A stretch of DNA of 64,000 bases from Bacilli bacterium (GTDB lineage Bacteria > Bacillota_I > Bacilli_A > ML615J-28 > CAG-698): contig JAGCUR010000018.1 of NCBI GenBank assembly GCA_017962745.1, positions 127,088 through 191,087 on the forward strand, written 5' to 3'. The position numbers and the translations under genes are program-made. Positions 7,504 through 52,130 of the stretch are shown here, piece after piece. The notes under the pieces were generated by a model. The model saw nothing but the letters and a program-made list of their open reading frames with translations. It was not told the origin of the DNA and searched no databases. Position 1 is the stretch's first letter. Each line of letters opens with the position of its first letter.

Positions 7504-8325
7504 ATGGGAAAATTATATTTAATACCAACACCGATTGGTAACTTAGATGATATGAATCTAAGGGCTTTAGAAGTCTTAAAAGAAGTAGATCATATTTATT
7601 GTGAAGATACAAGAAACACGAGGATCTTACTTAGTTATTATGATATTCATAAAGTTTTGAAGAGTTATCATATGTTTAATGAAGATAAAAAGAGCCAAGA
7701 GATTATAAAAGAATTAAAAGAAGGCTTAAATATAGCTCTTGTTAGCGATGCAGGATATCCTGGAATATCTGATCCTGGTTACTTAGTAGCTAAAAGAGCA
7801 ATTGAGGAAGGCTTGGAAGTTACTACGATTCCAGGGCCTACGGCAAGCCTTACTGCCCTAGTTACAAGTGGGATACCTTGTGATAAGTTTTATTTTTATG
7901 GCTTTTTAAATCATGATCTAAAGCAAAAGAAAAAAGAATTAGAAGAACTAGTTGATTTTAAAAATACGCTGATCTTTTATGAATCACCACACCGAATTGA
8001 GGAAACTTTAGAAGTATTACTTGAAATCTTTGGTAATAGATATATGTGTATAGCTAAAGACTTAACGAAAAAGTATGAAAAATACATTAGAGGTAATATA
8101 GCTGATATTATCGATATGCACTTAGAACTTAAAGGTGAGATGGTTTTAATTATAGAAGGGGCTAAAATAGATACAATTACTAATAATCTAAATAATTTAG
8201 ATATTGTAGATCATTATAAATATTATTTAGATCAAGGAATTGAATCAAAATTAGCGATGAAAAAAGTAGCAAGTGATAGAAACATTTCTAAAAGTGATGT
8301 ATATAGAGAAGTAATAAATAAATAG
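7504..8325 (+). CDS. rsmI: 16S rRNA (cytidine1402-2'-O)-methyltransferase
   Basis: N-terminal GKLYLIPTPIGNLDDM tetrapyrrole-methylase motif typical of RsmI. Good RBS, and an extended -10 (tgttataat) 20 bp upstream. Confidence 0.85.
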   Translation: MGKLYLIPTPIGNLDDMNLRALEVLKEVDHIYCEDTRNTRILLSYYDIHKVLKSYHMFNEDKKSQEIIKELKEGLNIALVSDAGYPGISDPGYLVAKRAIEEGLEVTTIPGPTASLTALVTSGIPCDKFYFYGFLNHDLKQKKKELEELVDFKNTLIFYESPHRIEETLEVLLEIFGNRYMCIAKDLTKKYEKYIRGNIADIIDMHLELKGEMVLIIEGAKIDTITNNLNNLDIVDHYKYYLDQGIESKLAMKKVASDRNISKSDVYREVINK

Positions 8326-8336
8326 GAGGATAAATT

Positions 8337-9269
8337 ATGTTATTTTTAGCTGATGAATTAGAAGGTGAAGTTGTAGAAGAGACTGTGGCAAGTGGTTATC
8401 AACTTAATGCCATTGATGAAATTTTTAATTTCGGCTTTATCCAACAAATTGAATCGCGAGGACTTCAAATCTTTTTAATCAAAGCGATGGAAGTTGTAGC
8501 GGTTTTAATCATTTTATTCATTTTATGTAAGATTGTCGACATCATTACTAAAACGATTAAAAGAAGAATGGAAAAGAAAGGCCGCGATAAAACAGTTACA
8601 AAGACTGTTTACCATTTAACTAATAAAGGTATTAAGATCTTATTAATCTTAGTAGCTGTAGGATGCTTAGGTATTGATACTACTAGTATTGTCGGTTTAT
8701 TTACGGCAGCTGGACTAGGTATAGGACTTGCTGTCCAAGGTGCTTTATCTAATTTTGCGGGTGGATTCTTAATTTTAATCATGAGACCATTTAGAGTTGA
8801 TGATTTTATTGAATGTCAAGGCGTAATGGGTAGAGTAGATGATATTCACCTATTCTATACAATGTTAGTAACTGTTGATAATAAAGAAATCATGATTCCA
8901 AATGGCGCTTTAATTGGCGGCAATGTAATTAACTATTCTAAGTTACCTACTAGAAGAGTAGATATCGACTTTTCAGTTGATTACAAAGCTGACTTTATGA
9001 AAGCTGAAGAAATCATTAAAGAAGTGGCTTCTAAACACGAACTTGTATTAAAAGATCCAGCTCCATTTGCACGTGTTACTGAATGGGGTGAATCACAATT
9101 AAAGGTTACTTGTAGAGTTTGGGTTAAAGGTGATGATTATTGGGGTGTTAGATTTGATCTAATCGAACAAGTTTATGCCGCATTTAAAGAAAATGGTATT
9201 AAAGTTCCATTTAAACAACTTGAAATTTCTTACCGTGAAGCATTAGCAGCTGAAAAAGCAGGTAAGTAA
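8337..9269 (+). CDS. Small-conductance mechanosensitive channel (MscS family)
   Basis: TM helices followed by the MscS beta-domain region (GxxxxIPN...V.NxS). Strong RBS aggagg. Confidence 0.8.
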   Translation: MLFLADELEGEVVEETVASGYQLNAIDEIFNFGFIQQIESRGLQIFLIKAMEVVAVLIILFILCKIVDIITKTIKRRMEKKGRDKTVTKTVYHLTNKGIKILLILVAVGCLGIDTTSIVGLFTAAGLGIGLAVQGALSNFAGGFLILIMRPFRVDDFIECQGVMGRVDDIHLFYTMLVTVDNKEIMIPNGALIGGNVINYSKLPTRRVDIDFSVDYKADFMKAEEIIKEVASKHELVLKDPAPFARVTEWGESQLKVTCRVWVKGDDYWGVRFDLIEQVYAAFKENGIKVPFKQLEISYREALAAEKAGK

Positions 9270-10394: not shown

Positions 10395-11090
10395 ATGAAG
10401 TTTTATGGAATGGAAAAATTATCACTTGTTGATTTTGATGGCAAAATCACTTGCGTTTTGTTTTGCGGAGGGTGTAATTTCGCCTGCCCATTTTGCCATA
10501 ACTCTTCACTTGCTCTAAACCCATCTCTAAATCAAGAATTAGATTTTAGTGAAGTGATGGATTACTTAACTTTAAGGCGCAAAATGGTTGATGCGGTATG
10601 TATCACAGGTGGGGAACCTACTTTATATAAAGATTTAAAAGATTATTTTAAAATCTTTAAGGACATGGGCTTTATCACTAAACTTGATACTAATGGCACT
10701 AATCCAGATATGATAAGAGAGTTAGTAGAAGCTGGCTTAATTGATTATGTTGCCATGGACGTTAAGAATTCTTATACAAATTATTTTAAAACAATAGGAA
10801 AAGATGATCCTAAACTATTAGCTAAAGTAAAAGAAAGCATCGCTTATTTAATTGAAGGACATGTTGATTACGAATTTAGAACAACGATTGTAGAAGAATT
10901 ACATAAAGAAGAAGATTTCATCGAGTTAGCTAAAATGCTAAAAGGTGCTAAAAGGTATTTTCTTCAAAAATTCAAAAATTCTGAATACTGCATAGCTTCA
11001 GGTCTTCACGAGATAAAGATTGAAGATGCTAATAAATATTTAGAGATATTAAGAAAAGACTTAAATGATGTAAACTTGAGAGGTTATTAA
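10395..11090 (+). CDS. nrdG: Anaerobic ribonucleotide reductase activating protein (radical SAM, NrdG-like)
   Basis: 231 aa. Carries the CGGCNFACPFCHN cluster motif and the GGEPT glycine-rich SAM motif typical of small glycyl-radical activases. Confidence 0.75.
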   Translation: MKFYGMEKLSLVDFDGKITCVLFCGGCNFACPFCHNSSLALNPSLNQELDFSEVMDYLTLRRKMVDAVCITGGEPTLYKDLKDYFKIFKDMGFITKLDTNGTNPDMIRELVEAGLIDYVAMDVKNSYTNYFKTIGKDDPKLLAKVKESIAYLIEGHVDYEFRTTIVEELHKEEDFIELAKMLKGAKRYFLQKFKNSEYCIASGLHEIKIEDANKYLEILRKDLNDVNLRGY

Positions 11091-11091
11091 T

Positions 11092-12111
11092 ATGCATAAA
11101 TTTAGAAATGATTATTGCGAAATAGCACATGATGTAGTGCTAAAAGCATTAATTGATAATAAAGATTACCAGTTTAGCGGTTACGGGCTAGATGAGCATA
11201 GCCAAAACGCTGCTAAGCTTATTAAAGATTTATTTAAAGCACCAAGTGCAGATGTCCATTTTTTAGTTGGTGGAACACAAACTAATTTAACTTTTATATC
11301 TTATGTTTTAAAAGATTATGAAGCAGTGATTGCAGTAAAATCAGGTCACATCAATGTTCATGAAACCGGAGCAATTGAAGCTACTGGCCATAAAGTTTAT
11401 ACAGTGGATGGTGTAGATGGAAAGTTAACAGCTAGTGAATTAGAAAAAGCGGTTAAATACCACTGTGACGAACATATGGTAAAACCAAAATTAGCATACA
11501 TTTCTAATTCCACAGAAATTGGCACTATTTATCAAAAAGAAGAACTAACTAGTTTATATAATAAATGCCATGAGTTAGGTTTATACTTATTTATAGATGG
11601 GGCAAGGTTAGCATGTGCTCTTACAAGTGATGCCAATAATTTAGCACTAGATGATATTGCAAAAAACTGTGATGCTTTTTATTTAGGTGGAACAAAAAAT
11701 GGCCTTATGTTTGGCGAAGCTTTAGTAATTGTAAATAAAGAATTACAAGCTGATTTTAGATATCAAATAAAAAGTAAAGGCGCAATGCTAGCAAAAGGGT
11801 TTATTAGTGGTATTCAGTTTGAAGCAATTTTAAAAGATAATTTATATTTTAAGATTGCGAAAAGCGCTAATGATATGGCTAAGATATTATATGAAAGACT
11901 AGTTAGCCTAAACTTTGATGTTGATCCCGTTTATACTAATCAATTATTTGTAACTATCAAAAAGGATTTAGCATATAAACTAATTGAAGCTTTTGGCTGC
12001 GAACTATGGAAAGATTTAGGTGATAAATTAGTAATTAGATTTGTGACATCTTTTAATACAAAAGCAGAAGATATTGAAGAAGTATATAATTATTTAATAA
12101 ATATTAAATAA
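11092..12111 (+). CDS. ltaE: Low-specificity L-threonine aldolase (beta-eliminating lyase fold)
   Basis: Carries the FRNDY N-terminal motif and a PLP-lysine context (GGTKNG). About 340 aa. Confidence 0.7.
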   Translation: MHKFRNDYCEIAHDVVLKALIDNKDYQFSGYGLDEHSQNAAKLIKDLFKAPSADVHFLVGGTQTNLTFISYVLKDYEAVIAVKSGHINVHETGAIEATGHKVYTVDGVDGKLTASELEKAVKYHCDEHMVKPKLAYISNSTEIGTIYQKEELTSLYNKCHELGLYLFIDGARLACALTSDANNLALDDIAKNCDAFYLGGTKNGLMFGEALVIVNKELQADFRYQIKSKGAMLAKGFISGIQFEAILKDNLYFKIAKSANDMAKILYERLVSLNFDVDPVYTNQLFVTIKKDLAYKLIEAFGCELWKDLGDKLVIRFVTSFNTKAEDIEEVYNYLINIK

Positions 12112-12216
12112 TATAAGCAAAAAATATAAATCAATAAGAAATTAATTGTGTAAAGGTTAATTATATATATGATTGATCTTTATATGATTAATTTTTTTTA
12201 TGGGAAGGAGATAGTA

Positions 12217-13092
12217 ATGAAAGAAAATAATTATGAAGTTGTAAAGTTTAAAGATGAAGAAATTGAATTAGATGTTAATGTGAGCGCAAAAGAAGATACA
12301 GTGTGGTTAACAGTTGAGCAAATAGCTCAATTATTCGAAAGGGATAGAAGTGTAATCTCTAGACATATAAATAACATTTATACAGAAGGAGAACTTGATA
12401 AAAGGACTTCTGTGCATTTTTTGCACATAACTAATTTGAATCCTAAGAATAGGCCGCCTGAATTATATAATCTGGATGTTATTATATCAGTTGGATATAG
12501 AGTAAAATCAAAACGAGGTATTCTATTTAGAAAATGGGCAACAAATGTCTTAAAAGAATACTTATTAAAAGGCTATTCTATCAATGAAAATAGAGTAGTA
12601 GTATCTAATGAAAACTATATCGAGTTAAGAAATGAAGTAGTAAGTATAAATGATAGATTGTTAAAGATAGAAGATAAAGTGTTTGATAAAGAATATGGAT
12701 TAGATAAACTATTTTTTAATGGACAATTTTATGATGCATATACATTAATTCAAAATATCTTTGAAAAAGCTAAAGAAGAAATAATAATTATAGATAATTA
12801 TATAGATAGATCTATTTTAGATAGATTAGTAGTTAAAAAAAATGATGTTAGAGTAATTATATATAAAAATATAAATACATCTAAAATAAATGATATAGAT
12901 ATAAATACATTTAATAAACAATATAATAATTTAAAAATTATTAATACATTAAAAGTACATGATAGATATATAATTATAGACAAAATAAAATTATATCATT
13001 TAGGAGCATCAATTAAAGATTTGGGGAAGAAGATATTTTCAATAAGTGAATTAGATAAAAACTGGATAAATATGTTATTAAATAACCTATAA
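12217..13092 (+). CDS. RhuM-family (virulence RhuM/KilA-N-like) protein with an AT-rich C-terminal domain shared with the ORF6N protein at 51192
   Basis: Carries the LYNLDVIISVGYRVKS..ILFRKWATNVLKEYLLKGYSINENR RhuM core. The C-terminal 130 aa, IIIIDNYID...HDRYIIIDKIKLYHLGASIKDLG, are homologous to the tail of the 51192 gene. Start moved to the ATG with an AAGGAG RBS. Confidence 0.65.
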   Translation: MKENNYEVVKFKDEEIELDVNVSAKEDTVWLTVEQIAQLFERDRSVISRHINNIYTEGELDKRTSVHFLHITNLNPKNRPPELYNLDVIISVGYRVKSKRGILFRKWATNVLKEYLLKGYSINENRVVVSNENYIELRNEVVSINDRLLKIEDKVFDKEYGLDKLFFNGQFYDAYTLIQNIFEKAKEEIIIIDNYIDRSILDRLVVKKNDVRVIIYKNINTSKINDIDINTFNKQYNNLKIINTLKVHDRYIIIDKIKLYHLGASIKDLGKKIFSISELDKNWINMLLNNL

Positions 13093-13189
13093 AACTAATA
13101 GAAGATGATAAGAAAAACTTATGAAAAAATGAAAAAAATTTTATGAAAATGAATGAAAAAAATAGTCGTTAATAAAAGTAGCATTTTCC

Positions 13190-13218
13190 TTGATTTTAGG
13201 TTTTTAAATAGGTATAAT
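13190..13218 (+). promoter_or_regulatory. Sigma-70-type promoter of nrdD
   Basis: TTGATT-17-TATAAT, 25 bp upstream of the ATG chosen for nrdD. Preceded by phased A-tracts. Confidence 0.5.
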
Positions 13219-13242
13219 GCTAATTACAGGAGTGTGCGTGTT

Positions 13243-15603
13243 ATGTTAAATGTTAAGAAAAGAGATGGCAATATTGTACCATTCGATCTTAAGAAAATCG
13301 AAGGAGCAATCGAAAAAGCCTTTAAAGGATTAAACAAAAATTATTCTCAAGATATCATTGAGTTACTTGCTTTAAAAGTTACTGCTGATTTTAATAGCAA
13401 GGTAAAAGATGGCGTTATTGATGTGGAAGACATCCAAGATAGCGTAGAAGTAGTATTAATTCAATCGAGTTATGTTGATGTTGCTAAAGCATATATTTTA
13501 TATCGTAAGCAACATGAAAATATTCGTAATGTGAAGAATACTATTATTGACTATAAAGATACAGTTGATAACTATTTAAAGATTAATGACTGGCGTGTTA
13601 AAGAAAACTCGACTGTTACATATTCTGTTGGTGGCTTAATCTTATCAAATTCAGGTGCAGTTACAGCTAACTACTGGCTATCTGAAGTATATGATACAGA
13701 AATTGAACAAGCTCATCGTAATGCCGATATTCATATCCATGACTTATCTATGCTTACAGGATATTGTGCTGGATGGAGTTTAAAACAATTAATTCAAGAA
13801 GGCCTTGGCGGCGTTCCTGGAAAGATTACATCAACACCTGCTTCACACTTATCAACTTTATGTAACCAAATGACTAACTTTTTAGGTATTATGCAAAATG
13901 AATGGGCTGGCGCTCAAGCATTCTCATCATTTGATACATACCTAGCTCCATTTGTTAAGGTTGATAACTTATCATATAAAGAAGTAAAACAATGCATCCA
14001 ATCATTCGTATATGGTGTTAACACACCTTCACGTTGGGGAACTCAAGCTCCATTTACAAATATTACGCTTGACTGGGTAGTTCCAAATGACTTAGCAGAA
14101 CTTAATGCAATCGTTGGTGGAGTTGAACAAAACTTCAAGTACAAAGATTGCGTTAAAGAAATGGCTATGGTTAACAAAGCATTTATCGAAATCATGATTG
14201 AAGGTGATGCTAACGGAAGAGGTTTCCAATACCCTATCCCTACATATTCAATCACTCGTGATTTTGATTGGAGTGAAACTGAAAACAATAAGTTATTATT
14301 CGAAATGACAGCTAAATATGGTACTCCATATTTCTCTAACTACATCAATTCTGATATGGAACCAAGTGATGTTAGAAGTATGTGCTGCAGGTTACGACTT
14401 GACTTAAGAGAATTAAGAAAGAAATCAGGTGGTTTCTTTGGTAGTGGTGAATCAACTGGTTCAGTTGGTGTAGTTACTATCAATATGCCAAGACTTGCAT
14501 ACCTTGCTGAAAACGAAGCTGATTTCTTCAATCGTCTAGAAAAGATGATGGATTTATCAGCTAGATCTCTAAAGATTAAAAGAAATGTTATTACTAAACT
14601 TTTAGATGCCGGACTTTATCCATACACTAAAAAGTATTTAGGAACATTCAATAACCATTTCTCTACAATCGGATTAGTTGGTATGAATGAAGCTTGCTTA
14701 AATGCTAAGTGGATTGGTAAAGATTTAACTCATAAAGAAAGTATTGAATTCACTAAGAAAACTCTAAACTTTATGAGAGAAAAATTATCTGATTACCAAG
14801 AATTATATGGTGATTTATATAACTTAGAAGCAACTCCAGCTGAATCAACGGCTTATAGACTTGCAAAACATGATAAGAAGCGTTATCCAAATATCATCAC
14901 TGCTAGCGAAGGTAATAATACTCCTTATTACACTAACTCAAGTCATTTACCAGTTGGTTATACTGAAGATATCTTCAAAGCATTAGATATCCAAGATGAA
15001 CTTCAGACATTATATACATCAGGAACTGTTTTCCATGCCTTCCTTGGTCAAAAATTACCATCTTGGCAAGCTTGTGCTAAGCTAGTTAGAACAATCGCCG
15101 AAAACTACAAACTTCCATACTATACAATGTCACCTACATATTCTGTTTGTGCAAAACATGGATATATCGAAGGTGAAGAATATGTATGTCCTATTTGTGG
15201 GGAAAGAACTGAAGTATATTCAAGAATTACTGGTTACTATCGTCCTGTTCAAAACTGGAATGAAGGTAAGACTGAAGAATTCAAGAATCGTAAGACTTAT
15301 GATATCGATAATTCACATCTTTCTAAGAAAGAAGAAAAATGCGAATGCGAATGTAAGGCTGCTCCAGCTGTAAAAGAAATGATGCTTTTCACTACAAAGA
15401 CATGTCCAAATTGTAAGATGGCTAAGATGTTACTAGAAAAAGCTGGTATCAAATACAAGATGATTGACGCTGAAGATGAAAAAGATGTAACACTTCAATA
15501 TGGTGTTAGAAAAGCCCCTACATTACTAGTACCTAATGGCGATTCATTCGATCGTTATGAAAATGCTAGTGAAATTAAAGGATTTATCGAAAGACAAAAA
15601 TAA
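13243..15603 (+). CDS. nrdD: Anaerobic (class III) ribonucleoside-triphosphate reductase with a C-terminal glutaredoxin/NrdH-like domain
   Basis: ATP-cone N-terminus (VKKRDGNIVPFDLKKIEGAIEKAF) and NrdD core. C-terminal zinc ribbon CPICGERTE plus glycyl-radical loop SRITGYYRP. A further 75 aa thioredoxin-fold segment with TCPNCKMAK is in frame. Start moved to the internal ATG with an AGGAG RBS. Confidence 0.85.
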   Translation: MLNVKKRDGNIVPFDLKKIEGAIEKAFKGLNKNYSQDIIELLALKVTADFNSKVKDGVIDVEDIQDSVEVVLIQSSYVDVAKAYILYRKQHENIRNVKNTIIDYKDTVDNYLKINDWRVKENSTVTYSVGGLILSNSGAVTANYWLSEVYDTEIEQAHRNADIHIHDLSMLTGYCAGWSLKQLIQEGLGGVPGKITSTPASHLSTLCNQMTNFLGIMQNEWAGAQAFSSFDTYLAPFVKVDNLSYKEVKQCIQSFVYGVNTPSRWGTQAPFTNITLDWVVPNDLAELNAIVGGVEQNFKYKDCVKEMAMVNKAFIEIMIEGDANGRGFQYPIPTYSITRDFDWSETENNKLLFEMTAKYGTPYFSNYINSDMEPSDVRSMCCRLRLDLRELRKKSGGFFGSGESTGSVGVVTINMPRLAYLAENEADFFNRLEKMMDLSARSLKIKRNVITKLLDAGLYPYTKKYLGTFNNHFSTIGLVGMNEACLNAKWIGKDLTHKESIEFTKKTLNFMREKLSDYQELYGDLYNLEATPAESTAYRLAKHDKKRYPNIITASEGNNTPYYTNSSHLPVGYTEDIFKALDIQDELQTLYTSGTVFHAFLGQKLPSWQACAKLVRTIAENYKLPYYTMSPTYSVCAKHGYIEGEEYVCPICGERTEVYSRITGYYRPVQNWNEGKTEEFKNRKTYDIDNSHLSKKEEKCECECKAAPAVKEMMLFTTKTCPNCKMAKMLLEKAGIKYKMIDAEDEKDVTLQYGVRKAPTLLVPNGDSFDRYENASEIKGFIERQK

Positions 15604-48067: not shown

Positions 48068-49438
48068 ATGTATAAAAAAGTAAAAGATTATATCGAAACA
48101 ATAGATGGCATATCTCATACTACCTTTGATCCGCACGGACCAGGAGTAGTAAGGATTCACCTAGTACCACCCGAAAAGATTAAACTCGGTTTAGCTTGGA
48201 CCATTATTTTAAATGGTCAAGATGTAATACCTATTACCTTTGGTTGGGCAGTATTACTGCGTGAATTTATTAATGCTGTTAACAAAAGAAGTGGCGTAGC
48301 TTTAGAAGATGAAGAAATTGCCCATATCATTAATGAAGCAATTGAAGCTGCTAGTAAAGTATTTGATAAGACTAACAAAAAGACCCTTCGTGCCGATTTA
48401 AAACAAATCGTAGAAACATTAACTAAGATTGCAAGAAAAGAAAAGATATCTGAGATAATAGAATATGCACCTTTATCTACATATGCTAAATACATGGCTG
48501 CTCCGCACAGAATGGATTTAATGATTTCCGCCATGAGCAAAAATGGGGCTTGGCATTGTAATCAAAAATGTTTAAATTGTTATGCGGCAGGGCAGATTCA
48601 AGCAAATGTAGAAGAAATTGATACTGAAAGTTGGAAGAAAATTATTGATAAATGCAAAGCTTCCATGATTCCTCAATTAACATTTACTGGTGGAGAGCCT
48701 ACACTAAGATCAGATTTAGTAGAACTTGTTAATTATTCACAGTGGTTTGTAACCCGCCTTAATACTAATGGGCAGCTATTATCTAAAGAGTTATGTGCTA
48801 AGTTATATGAAGCAAGCCTTGATAGTGTTCAAGTAACACTATATTCACATAAAAAAGAAATTCATAACTTTCTAGTTGGCGCCGATGGTTTTGATAAAAC
48901 CATTGAGGGCATTAAAAATGCGATTGATGCTAGGTTAAATGTTAGCATCAATACACCATTATGTGATCTAAATAAAGATTATGTGGATATGGTTAAATAT
49001 GCTCATGAAGTGCTAGGTGTTAATTATTTCACATGTTCTGGTTTAATTTTAACTGGTAATGCTACGGATACTGCTAATTCTAGATTATCTAAAGCAGAAA
49101 TCTTAAATGTTTTAAAAGAAGCTAAAGCGTATACTGATTCAAATAATTGCGAATTATCATTTACATCGCCTGGTTGGATTGATAGCGATATTTTAAGAAA
49201 GATGAAAATGATGGTGCCTTCTTGTGGAGCATGTTCATCAAATATGGCTATTACGCCAAATGGCATGGTAGTACCTTGCCAAAGTTGGCTTTCAGATACC
49301 CCACTTGGTAACATGCTAACTGATGAATGGAAAAAGATTTGGAATAGTAGAAGATGTGTAAAGTTAAGAAAAGAAAATTCTAAAGCTAATGATTTATGTC
49401 CATTAAGCGGTAGAATTGAGGGTGAAGTAAATGAGTAA
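48068..49438 (+). CDS. Radical SAM enzyme with C-terminal SPASM/twitch domain and a 160-aa N-terminal extension
   Basis: CNQKCLNCY (CX3CX2C) at aa about 164 and a GGEPTL SAM motif. The C-terminal Cys-rich region (CSGLIL...SCGACSS...VPCQSW...CVKL...CPLSG) is typical of SPASM auxiliary clusters. Confidence 0.75.
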   Translation: MYKKVKDYIETIDGISHTTFDPHGPGVVRIHLVPPEKIKLGLAWTIILNGQDVIPITFGWAVLLREFINAVNKRSGVALEDEEIAHIINEAIEAASKVFDKTNKKTLRADLKQIVETLTKIARKEKISEIIEYAPLSTYAKYMAAPHRMDLMISAMSKNGAWHCNQKCLNCYAAGQIQANVEEIDTESWKKIIDKCKASMIPQLTFTGGEPTLRSDLVELVNYSQWFVTRLNTNGQLLSKELCAKLYEASLDSVQVTLYSHKKEIHNFLVGADGFDKTIEGIKNAIDARLNVSINTPLCDLNKDYVDMVKYAHEVLGVNYFTCSGLILTGNATDTANSRLSKAEILNVLKEAKAYTDSNNCELSFTSPGWIDSDILRKMKMMVPSCGACSSNMAITPNGMVVPCQSWLSDTPLGNMLTDEWKKIWNSRRCVKLRKENSKANDLCPLSGRIEGEVNE

Positions 49439-50471
49439 TATTAAGAAGTTATTGGTATTTATCATTCTTTCCTTAAGCTTAGTTTTTGCTTTCTCATTTA
49501 GTAAAGTTAAAGCATATAATGATTTAGATCATATTGAATTATATGAGATTAAAGTAACACCCGTTAAAGATGATGGTAGCCTAAATATTGAAATCCATAT
49601 TATTTGGGAAGTATTAGATAGTTATACTGATGGTCCATTAGAATGGATTAAAGTAGGTATACCTAATTACCATGCGAAGGACATTAAAGCATTAAGTGGT
49701 GGAATTAGAAAGATAAAGTATTATTCAGATAGTGGATCATACATTAGAATTGATTTTTCTAATAGCCATTATGAAGGTGAAAAGATTGATATTCGCTTTA
49801 GTTATAATCAATCATACATGTATCATCTAAATGAAGAATATGTGGTTTATGATTATCATCCTGGTTGGTTTGATGATATCAAAGTAGATATGTGTAATCT
49901 TTATTGGGCTAAAGATGGTGTAGATCAAATAGCAGATGGCATAACTACTGCAAGTGGTGTAACATTTAGCGAAGAAGATGGTTATTATAAACTATCTAGT
50001 CCACTAAATTATGGTGGAACGATAAAAATGAGGCTTCGCTATGCTAATAATTACTTTAGTGAACTTGATCCAAAGAAAGAATATACTGATAAATATGTTA
50101 AACCAGTAACTATTATTTTAATTGTAGCAGCAATTGTTACCTTTTTAGCAATAGTAATTGCTCTATATTACTATCAAAAGAATAATCAAGATCCATATAT
50201 GAATGAAAGAGGATTTTGTACAGGTTATTACCATTGGTATTTATTTGGTAGACCTCACCATTATTATGGAAAAACAGTTAATAGTAAAGGTGCAAGAATC
50301 GTAAATCCATCTTCTAGCAGTGGAAGCCATGGTGGATTTAGCGGTGGTGGCGGCTGTGCTTGTGCATGTGCTTGCGCATGCGCTGGTGGCGGAAGAGCTG
50401 GATGCTCGAAAAAAGACTTTTACAATACTAACTTGTCAAGCGAAAAAGTATTAAAAGAGTTAGAAAAGTAA
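49431..50471 (+). CDS. DUF2207-like membrane protein with cytoplasmic Gly/Cys-Ala repeat tail
   Basis: Signal peptide, extracytoplasmic beta-rich domain and one TM helix. Cytoplasmic tail ...SSSSGSHGGFSGGGGCACACACACAGGGRAGCS. Overlaps the rSAM gene by 8 bp. Confidence 0.5.
   Translation: MSNIKKLLVFIILSLSLVFAFSFSKVKAYNDLDHIELYEIKVTPVKDDGSLNIEIHIIWEVLDSYTDGPLEWIKVGIPNYHAKDIKALSGGIRKIKYYSDSGSYIRIDFSNSHYEGEKIDIRFSYNQSYMYHLNEEYVVYDYHPGWFDDIKVDMCNLYWAKDGVDQIADGITTASGVTFSEEDGYYKLSSPLNYGGTIKMRLRYANNYFSELDPKKEYTDKYVKPVTIILIVAAIVTFLAIVIALYYYQKNNQDPYMNERGFCTGYYHWYLFGRPHHYYGKTVNSKGARIVNPSSSSGSHGGFSGGGGCACACACACAGGGRAGCSKKDFYNTNLSSEKVLKELEK
50355..50384 (+). repeat. Hexanucleotide (TGY-GCW)x5 in-frame microsatellite encoding (Cys-Ala)5
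   Basis: The sequence tgtgcttgtgcatgtgcttgcgcatgcgct lies within the 49431 ORF. Confidence 0.8.
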
Positions 50472-50488
50472 AGAATTATTCTTAAATG

Positions 50489-50513
50489 AGGAGCCCTAGG
50501 CTCCTTTTTTTTT
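50489..50513 (+). terminator. Rho-independent terminator
   Basis: aggagcc-ctag-ggctcct hairpin followed by T9. Confidence 0.7.
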
Positions 50514-50682: not shown

Positions 50683-50857
50683 TTTCCAGAAAGATATAGA
50701 TTTCAAATGAATGTGGATGAAATAGAATATTTATCGAGGTCAAAAAATTTGACCTCGATAATGCAAACAACTGGTATAAAGGGTGGCCGTGTTTATTTGC
50801 CATATGCTTTTACTGAACAAGGTATTTATATGTTGAAGAGAGGGGAAGAGAATAATG
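50683..50857 (+). pseudogene. 5'-truncated ORF6N-domain gene copy (first unit of tandem array)
   Basis: Translates as FPERYRFQ...GGRVYLPYAFTEQGIYMLKRGEENNG*, matching the C-terminal half of the next two ORF6N genes. No upstream start. Confidence 0.55.
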
Positions 50858-51199
50858 GATAATAAAGATATAGAAATCATAGAATTAAACAATGAATCAA
50901 TTGAGAAAATGATTTATGTTATTAGGGGCAAGAAAGTAATGCTAGATTTTGATTTAGCTAGAATATATGGTTTTGACACTAAAAGATTAAATGAGCAAGT
51001 AAAAAGAAATATAAGTAAGTTTCCAGAAAGATATAGGTTTCAGCTGACATTATACGAAGTGGATTATTTGGTGAGGTCGCAAAATGCGACCTCACGAATT
51101 TGGCCAATGACTAATGAAGGTGGCAGAAGATATTTGCCATATGCATTTACAGAACAAGGTATTTATATGTTGAAGAGAGGAGAAGAGAATAATGGATAA
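50855..51199 (+). CDS. ORF6N-domain protein (short copy, ORF6N domain only)
   Basis: VMLDFDLARIYG...NEQVKRN..FPERYRF...RYLPYAFTEQG is typical of the ORF6N/KilA-N-like family. About 97% DNA identity with the start of the next gene over about 170 bp. Confidence 0.6.
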   Translation: MDNKDIEIIELNNESIEKMIYVIRGKKVMLDFDLARIYGFDTKRLNEQVKRNISKFPERYRFQLTLYEVDYLVRSQNATSRIWPMTNEGGRRYLPYAFTEQGIYMLKRGEENNG

Positions 51200-52130
51200 T
51201 AAAGAAATAGAAATCATAGAATTAAACAATGAATCAATTGAGAAAATGATTTATGTTATTAGAGACAAGAAAGTAATGCTAGATTTTGATTTAGCTAGAA
51301 TATATGGATATGAAACAAGAAGATTTAATGAACAAGTAAAAAGAAATATTGATAAATTTCCAGAACGATATCGATTTAAGTTGAACCAATTCGAGATTGA
51401 TTCAATCTTGAAGTCGCATTTTGCGACATCAAGTTGGGGCGGCACTAGAAAGCTTCCTTATGCATTCACAGAACAAGGTATTTATATGTTAATGACTGTA
51501 TTAAAAGGAGATTTAGCCACTAAACAATCTATTGCATTAATTGATGCTTTTAAAAATATGAAAGATTATATTATTGAAAACAATGGATTACTATTAAATA
51601 CTAATACTTATATAGAATCAAAGTTTGCTTCATATGATAAAAGATTTGAAGTAATTGAAAATAAAATAGATATAGTTATGGATAACTTTATAGATCCATC
51701 TAGTTATAAACATTATTTAATACTAAATGGTCAAAGGATTGAATCAGATATTGCTTGTCAATCTATTTATAAATTAGCTAAATATTCTTTAATAATAATT
51801 GATAATTATATAGATATAAAAACATTACAGTTATTAAAAGTATGTAATAAAGATATAAATATAATAATTATAAGTGATAATGTATTAAGACTAGGTAATA
51901 GTTTTATTAATGATTTTAAAAAAGATACTAATATTAATATAATAATAAAACCAAATAATAATTTATTTCATGATAGATATATTATTATAGACTATGATAA
52001 TAATGATAATTATCAAATATATCATTGTGGATCATCTAGTAAAGATGGAGGGAATAAGATATCTACTATTATGAAAATAGAAGATAAGATGATGTATAAA
52101 AAGATCATTGATAAAATGATAATTATATAA
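51192..52130 (+). CDS. ORF6N-domain protein with C-terminal domain shared with the RhuM protein at 12217 (HxR-x4-D PLD-like motif)
   Basis: N-terminal ORF6N domain. The C-terminal 140 aa, LIIIDNYID...HDRYIIIDYDNNDNYQIYHCGSSSKDGG, are homologous to the RhuM gene tail. Extremely AT-rich 3' half. Confidence 0.65.
   Translation: MDNKEIEIIELNNESIEKMIYVIRDKKVMLDFDLARIYGYETRRFNEQVKRNIDKFPERYRFKLNQFEIDSILKSHFATSSWGGTRKLPYAFTEQGIYMLMTVLKGDLATKQSIALIDAFKNMKDYIIENNGLLLNTNTYIESKFASYDKRFEVIENKIDIVMDNFIDPSSYKHYLILNGQRIESDIACQSIYKLAKYSLIIIDNYIDIKTLQLLKVCNKDINIIIISDNVLRLGNSFINDFKKDTNINIIIKPNNNLFHDRYIIIDYDNNDNYQIYHCGSSSKDGGNKISTIMKIEDKMMYKKIIDKMIII

Follow-up and report, generated by a model that had tools for sequence, protein, structure and literature searches.

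A phospholipase D-fold module shared by RhuM-type and ORF6N proteins of a Bacilli bacterium

How can two proteins whose N-terminal heads have so little in common end in the same module, and what might such a module do? The question is raised by two genes in a 64,000-nucleotide stretch of DNA from a Bacilli bacterium (contig JAGCUR010000018.1, positions 127,088 to 191,087), the whole of which is called the window here. Gene p1 (12217-13092, forward strand) encodes 291 amino acids and begins with a RhuM-N-type head, while gene p2 (51192-52130, forward strand) encodes 312 amino acids and begins with an ORF6N head. In each, a coiled-coil linker joins the head to a C-terminal domain. An original prediction, made from the letters alone, had located both genes and proposed that their C-terminal domains are homologous and resemble a half-site of phospholipase D (PLD) nucleases with Arg in place of Lys. 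The open reading frames (ORFs) lie exactly where it placed them, and the build of both proteins is supported by Pfam and PADLOC matches and, for p2, by a structural model.

The shared module is a PLD-superfamily domain, and p1 and p2 both belong to a single large family of one-gene modules. The reading favored here, with a probability of about 0.55, is that both are head-directed homodimeric PLD nucleases acting as a mobile single-gene defence or addiction module.

The shared module and its active-site-like motif

Residues 117-280 of p1 and 123-297 of p2 are 34% identical over 178 amino acids (BLASTP, E=2e-13). As this value is composition-adjusted, the match is not a chance artefact of sequence rich in adenine and thymine (AT-rich). 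The strings that first drew attention to the homology, namely NGQ, IIIIDNYID/LIIIDNYID and HDRYIIID followed by G(A/S)S, are all present. The unusual base composition is also borne out. The guanine-plus-cytosine (GC) content of the 3' halves of both genes is 0.16-0.17, compared with about 0.29-0.30 in their 5' halves and 0.31-0.36 in neighboring genes. The drop across the PLD halves (12565-13089 and 51558-52127) occurs at all three codon positions, and GC content at third positions falls to 0.09-0.10 from 0.17-0.25 in the neighbors, so that amino acid composition alone is insufficient to explain it.

The earlier analysis had also held an ORF6C-type identity in reserve, noting that ORF6N is often accompanied by ORF6C; the region is, moreover, very AT-rich and its product rich in Ile, Asn and Lys. 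An ORF6C- or NERD-type domain, or a compositional artefact, is nevertheless refuted by profile, BLASTP and fold tests and retains next to no probability. The module has no Pfam match to ORF6C (PF10552) or NERD (PF08378) at E<=1 or even E<=10, the E-value given above speaks for homology, the PLD fold is reached by two methods, and the 5,819 related clusters described below include GC-richer taxa. A SUKH-type alternative yielded no supported match to the module.

Sequence searches of the PDB with the single domain and with profiles A1 and A3 found nothing significant, the best match being Nuc at E=0.26, and comparison of folds was therefore required. An AlphaFold model of p1 residues 117-291, with a mean predicted local distance difference test score (pLDDT) of 84, contains the beta-alpha-beta-alpha-beta sandwich of the PLD fold. 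Its top Foldseek matches in the PDB are PLD, FAM83, NucT, PLD2, TrmBL2, Nuc and Zucchini, with E about 1e-5. The full-length model of p2 (pLDDT 81) resolves into the head (residues 12-105), two long helices (107-167) and the PLD domain (175-311), the last with pLDDT 84-92, and its structural matches include NucT, Zucchini, PPK, Tdp1 and TrmBL2. TrmB, FAM83 and MITD1 are further high-ranking matches. On the DNA, the PLD-fold domain occupies 12709-13089 in p1 (about residues 165-291) and 51714-52127 in p2 (about residues 175-311, delimited by the strand/helix pattern and the structural matches), both on the forward strand.

Profiles point the same way. Two homologues that are 56% identical to the p1 module, P0087 and P0088, score 29.1 and 27.5 bits against Pfam PLDc_2 (threshold 27), and 12 of 146 family representatives match this model at E<=1e-3. 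The PADLOC profile of DrmC reaches the p1 module weakly, at 2.2e-4. Aligned by hhalign (profile-to-sequence, E=7e-5), the HDR...D of the family falls onto the HDK...D of Nuc, and HMMER gives the same placement.

The residues so aligned form a motif that lies at 12958-13020 in p1 (HDRYIIIDKIKLYHLGASIKD) and at 51969-52046 in p2 (HDRYIIIDYDNNDNYQIYHCGSSSKD), both on the forward strand, with a hairpin in p2 that is five residues longer than that of p1. The pattern HDR-x4-D-x7-GxSxK is nearly invariant in about 270 homologues, and HDR[YF]..ID is found in 118 of the 120 closest. Within domain alignment A1, the H, D, R, D, H, G, S, K and D of HDRxxxxD-x5-H-x-G-x-S-x-K-D are invariant, as they are at the p1 site. 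A wider set, the 146 representatives at 50% identity, retains H and D without exception, and R, D, G, S and K are conserved in at least 90% of it. The Ser of the loop never varies, and the middle residue is hydrophobic, as it is in Nuc. The Lys of the loop has a single recurrent replacement, Asn, in segments such as GASLNH and GSSLNR. Judged from these sequences, the conserved loop is best described as S-x-K, which would correspond to the canonical S-x-N but sits on a hairpin longer by two residues. The family motif is a variant of the literal pattern HxK(x4)D(x6)GSxN: Lys is replaced by Arg, GS becomes GxS on the longer hairpin, and Asn becomes Lys, a minority having Asn.

Thus the PLD/HKD-like character of the domain and its substitution of Arg for Lys hold up, given the PLDc_2 homologues, the alignment onto Nuc and the essentially invariant H, R and D. 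The proposal that HDR...GAS/GSS is spaced like an HxK half-site stands in part, the loop being better described by S-x-K than by GxS alone. Lack of a PLD-like fold, and lack of conservation at H, R and D across homologues, had been named as findings that would speak against the prediction, and neither arose.

Heads, relatives and genomic settings

The head of p1 (residues 1-116; 12217-12564, forward strand) is its putative DNA-binding and specificity-determining part, recognized by the N-terminal segment of Pfam RhuM and by weak helix-turn-helix (HTH) matches. Pfam Virulence_RhuM (PF13310) aligns with residues 77-134 through model positions 17-76 of 252 (70.4 bits), and no whole-model match is found in p1. 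Canonical RhuM therefore has the N-terminal 60 model positions in common with the p1 head, whereas its remaining approximately 175 are missing from p1 and replaced by the linker and PLD domain. Translation of p1 could also begin further upstream, at an ATG at 12169; the alignment of p1 with the PADLOC model PDLC04879 begins at residue 4 counted from 12217. The head of p2 matches Pfam ORF6N (PF10543) over the full length of the model (6.4e-31, 106.9 bits; threshold 27.8). The two heads had been called unrelated. They do belong to different families by sequence, and an hhalign comparison of the RhuM-N and ORF6N profiles is not significant (E=0.012, probability 3.5%), although a common fold is possible.

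Exact sequence look-ups returned no record of p1, taken from either possible start, or of p2. The family extends far beyond this genome. A search with the p1 module found 489 relatives, and a profile search of 1.84 billion cluster representatives returned 5,819 clusters at E<=1e-3 and 2,706 at E<=1e-10, clusters being defined at 50% identity. The survey of N-terminal partners proposed with the original prediction found ORF6N on 51, RhuM-N on 19 and Bro-N on 2 of the top 146 representatives, plus singletons; a DUF1016_N head also occurs on the module. Proteins of the family are at present annotated as 'RhuM family' or 'ORF6N domain-containing' alone. In PHROGs only the heads find matches, to anti-repressor families, and the module corresponds to no phage family there. 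Searches of phage genomes with the p2 module gave no match and with the p1 module three unannotated metagenomic records, while viral contigs in IMG/VR do carry p2-type genes.

Both proteins match models of the PADLOC candidate class PDC-S05 from end to end. For p1, residues 4-288 align with positions 3-281 of 285 in PDLC04879 (2.5e-87), and for p2, residues 1-309 align with positions 2-300 of 306 in PDLC04869 (6.6e-99). The class was defined bioinformatically and covers many C-terminal types, and neither a PLD assignment nor a mechanism appears for it in searchable papers. One of its members lowered the plating of T7 and T5 about 1000-fold (Nat Commun 2026, PMC12881386) and protected Escherichia coli against T7, T5 and T4 (PMC12881386). 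The earlier framing of p1 and p2 as defence proteins is consistent with this test and with the full-length PADLOC matches, and for the two proteins themselves it stays a conjecture.

As the original prediction stated, p1 sits between nrdG (10395-11090) and nrdD (13153-15603), and a second gene, a 339-residue ORF at 11092-12111 that looks aldolase-like when its translation is inspected by eye, also lies between them. The same order of nrdG, 339-residue ORF and RhuM-PLD gene is kept around a syntenic orthologue of p1 (7524-8426 of locus L001), its nearest relative, from a metagenome-assembled genome of a rumen Bacilli. The head of the orthologue is 54% identical to that of p1, compared with 89% for the linker and PLD part; among flanking genes, nrdG is 87% and the 339-residue ORF 77% identical. 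The head has diverged faster than the PLD part, as would be expected if it determined specificity and the remainder were a conserved effector. The nrdD gene itself encodes 816 residues, and its 3' end (15380-15603) specifies a C-terminal extension with a CPNC motif that, judged from the translation, resembles a glutaredoxin/NrdH-type redoxin fused to the protein.

Close relatives mostly carry the gene as a single insertion amid housekeeping genes, with an HTH neighbor in about a quarter of loci. In five related genomes an XRE-type HTH ORF of approximately 104 codons overlaps the start of the RhuM-PLD gene (L004 7247-7564, L005 7253-7564, L007 7226-7543, L008 7255-7566 and L010 7253-7570). Its product could be a controller or an antidote, and no such ORF is found upstream of p1. 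Less closely related members are found in mobile or defence-type surroundings. On plasmid pTS1 of Treponema saccharophilum, an ORF6N-PLD gene (L083 4485-5381) lies between hsdM and hsdS of a type I restriction-modification (R-M) operon, with a small winged-helix gene upstream and Fic, HNH and P-loop genes downstream. Plasmid members from Bacteroides, Segatella and Legionella adjoin recombinases, integrases, Fic and DUF3644 genes, and some of the plasmids that bear members of the family are conjugative or mobilisable.

A proposed head-directed nuclease and its alternatives

In the proposed protein, each chain begins with a DNA-binding head that varies among members, continues through a long helical linker and ends in a single PLD-fold domain. 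By analogy with Nuc, NucT, Zucchini and BfiI, two chains would pair through their coiled coils and PLD domains to build one catalytic centre. The conserved His would attack the phosphodiester, with Arg replacing the canonical Lys and the Ser-x-Lys loop replacing Ser-x-Asn, both to hold the phosphate. The two heads of the dimer would select the nucleic acid to be cleaved, most likely DNA, and biologically the proteins may serve defence or addiction, as horizontally mobile members of the candidate class PDC-S05.

Several known systems offer parallels. Nuc of plasmid pKM101 and NucT of Helicobacter pylori, like p1 and p2, carry one motif per chain, hence the expectation of a dimer, and the H-D-x...D of Nuc aligns with the family motif. 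They differ in possessing Lys where p1 and p2 have Arg, and G-S-x-N where p1 and p2 have G-x-S-x-K on a hairpin two residues longer. In contrast to p1 and p2, they lack both a DNA-binding head and a coiled coil, and they are non-specific nucleases that are secreted or reside in the periplasm. BfiI and NgoAVII combine an N-terminal PLD domain with a C-terminal B3-like domain and a cognate methyltransferase, so that the domain order in p1 and p2 is reversed. Compared with these enzymes and SauUSI, p1 and p2 have an ORF6N or RhuM-N head instead of a B3-like domain, HxR/SxK instead of HxK/SxN, no helicase and no methyltransferase partner seen in the window; inspection of translations by eye found no methyltransferase-like ORF beside p1 or p2, a comparison made without a profile-library scan. 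RhuM-like genes are known hitch-hikers in R-M loci. The DISARM protein DrmC is a PLD-family defence nuclease, and the weak profile match to the p1 module was noted above. However, no DISARM genes are near, p1 is not a full-length DrmC and the motif variant differs. As a PLD nuclease joined to a DNA-binding domain, and one that falls in a catalogued candidate class, the overall kind of protein is already known; what is new is the HxR/SxK site, the repertoire of ORF6N, RhuM-N and Bro-N heads on one module, and the size of the family.

Some observations weigh against head-directed cleavage in defence or addiction. We know of no characterized PLD enzyme in which Arg takes the place of the Lys or Lys that of the Asn, and a literature search for an HKD variant with Arg found none described. 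The sequences of p1 and p2 themselves fall below detection by PLDc_2. The window shows no partner gene for immunity or modification. A defence-island test on 37 close relatives showed no enrichment, the neighbors being mostly housekeeping genes such as those for asparagine synthase and ABC transporters. Finally, the PDC-S05 protein that was tested against phages is described merely as a RhuM-domain protein and may not be of the PLD subtype (PMC12881386).

The chief alternative, unlikely on balance but to be taken seriously, is a non-catalytic PLD fold. The proteins would then be DNA-binding regulators resembling TrmB and TrmBL2, or chromatin-type proteins, in which the PLD-like domain dimerises or binds a phosphate-bearing ligand and the H/R/S/K pocket binds without cleaving. 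Archaeal TrmB and TrmBL2 have a PLD-like C-terminal domain, and TrmBL2 matches the full-length p2 model from end to end, through head, long helix and PLD-like domain (E=3e-5). The presence of TrmB, FAM83 and MITD1 among the best structural matches, the departure of the motif from the canonical Lys and Asn, and the housekeeping neighbors at many loci fit such a role as well. Yet the resemblance to TrmB and TrmBL2 is structural only, with no Pfam match and no sequence match to TrmB families, and TrmB-type domains are not known to carry the His-based motif, which is invariant in the family of p1 and p2. More generally, non-catalytic relatives with the PLD fold are not known to have kept the motif. 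Here H, R, D, S and K/N are near-invariant over thousands of clusters, as is typical of an active site, and the loop Lys, when it changes, becomes the catalytic Asn. Members in an R-M operon and in mobile elements, and the place of the family in a catalogue of defence candidates, also argue for activity.

A phosphodiesterase that is active on something other than bulk DNA, whether RNA, a nucleotide signal, a DNA-protein adduct or a lipid, is considerably less probable still. The head would then serve in localisation or regulation only. The superfamily and the structural matches do include lipid hydrolases, Tdp1, PPK and the PLD3/4 exonucleases, and the altered Arg and Lys chemistry could reflect a different substrate. 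However, the KilA-N-type, ORF6N, Bro-N and DUF1016_N heads are all associated with nucleic acids, and among small single-domain proteins the nearest matches are the nucleases NucT, Nuc and Zucchini. In the p2 model, DSSP assigns no membrane-like helix, no dedicated predictor having been run.

With this assignment, a family of 5,819 clusters acquires a fold and a putative active site that can be tested, consisting of H248, R250, S265 and K267 in p1 numbering, and a catalogued class of anti-phage candidates is shown to include a subtype that joins a PLD domain to exchangeable DNA-binding heads. Should the domain be active, the HxR/SxK site would extend the known chemistry of the superfamily and add a compact nuclease design with a programmable head.

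A palindrome in the ORF6N head array

As had been predicted, p2 ends a tandem array, which spans 50684-51530 and has a repeat unit of 337 bp: a 5'-truncated ORF6N copy 0 (50684-50862), a head-only ORF6N ORF of 114 residues (copy 1, 50855-51199) whose stop overlaps the start codon of p2, and p2 itself, all on the forward strand. The head-only ORF matches Pfam ORF6N with E=2.5e-31 and 108.2 bits (threshold 27.8). A ribosome-binding site and an ATG are present in every unit, and the repeat length puts successive units out of frame, giving rise to head-only ORFs that end in KRGEENNG. The copies are 86% identical overall, with near-identical flanks and a diverged centre, and the centre of copy 0 resembles an allele that is found elsewhere as a full head. 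This fits a set of exchangeable head cassettes, a reading tempered by the rarity of similar arrays, which were found in only two of 65 other loci (head remnants in L002 and a second ORF6N gene in L035).

All three ORF6N heads in the window contain a strong palindrome within their coding sequence, at the motif N-L-R-S-Q-[IF]-[AV]-T-S. In copy 0 (50731-50761) it has 14-bp arms that are 100% complementary around a 3-nt centre (RNA fold -18.8 kcal/mol, z -8.2). The palindrome of copy 1 (51071-51095) has 11-bp perfect arms (RNA fold -24.9 kcal/mol, z -6.0), and that in the p2 head (51407-51433) has 12-bp arms with one mismatch (RNA fold -16.8 kcal/mol, z -3.35); none of the three is assigned to a strand. 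No additional copies were found in the window, Rfam searches gave no match for the palindrome and no relevant match for the array, and RhuM-type heads have no palindrome.

The element is widespread. Palindromes with arms of 11-22 bp occur in 62 of 64 ORF6N instances from several phyla, and one further instance, a masked run of N, has no score. They are mostly located 21-57 nt upstream of the codons for PYAFTEQG, and 98 nt upstream in two loci. On viral contigs, all 26 PLD-fused ORF6N genes carry the palindrome, compared with 25 of 53 ORF6N genes without PLD; the other 28 have a short core palindrome at most. Neither the fusion of ORF6N to PLD nor the palindrome was found described in the literature.

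Codon choice appears to bend to the symmetry. The number of Watson-Crick pairs averages 13.9 of 16, against 7.3 after synonymous resampling, and the codons concerned are rare in these genomes (TCG 3%, GCG 6%, GTG 8%, ACC 8% and AGG 9%). The Ser codon contributes its wobble base to a pair with the second position of the Ala/Val codon, so that TCG accompanies GCG and TCA accompanies GTG. In a covariation set of 55 distinct sequences, whose rows were preselected for Watson-Crick matches, both sides have changed in 14 of 16 pairs (10.2 in shuffles) and in 155 cells (49 +/- 7 in shuffles). The covariation score is 0.446, compared with 0.153 in shuffles, none of 500 of which reaches it, and it drops to 0.06-0.11 when the partners are slid. 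Changes on one side only, of the G-U type, are almost lacking. This favors dyad symmetry in DNA over an RNA hairpin, although the choice of rows makes the point a weak one.

Candidate roles for the palindrome are an operator for an ORF6N dimer, a recombination or cruciform site, and an mRNA hairpin. It is a speculative and rather unlikely suggestion that the palindrome is a working DNA element recognized by the ORF6N dimer, so that each gene would bear the target of its own head. If so, the PLD fusions might engage in autoregulation, self-marking or homing-like cutting of related alleles; head-only ORFs such as that at 50855-51199 might act as protective competitors, and the tandem heads as exchangeable specificity cassettes. 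The covarying palindrome would be a clear case of a nucleic-acid element that overrides codon choice in a domain widespread in phages and mobile elements.

Upstream of the array, a GC-rich hairpin with a T-run (50488-50506) lies just past the preceding gene and looks like a terminator, for which reason the array appears to begin its own transcription unit. The preceding ORF (49431-50471) encodes a predicted protein of 346 amino acids with a C-terminal run rich in Gly, Cys and Ala (GGGGCACACACACAGGGRAGC, at 50341-50400), which is coded by TGTGCA/TGTGCT repeats.

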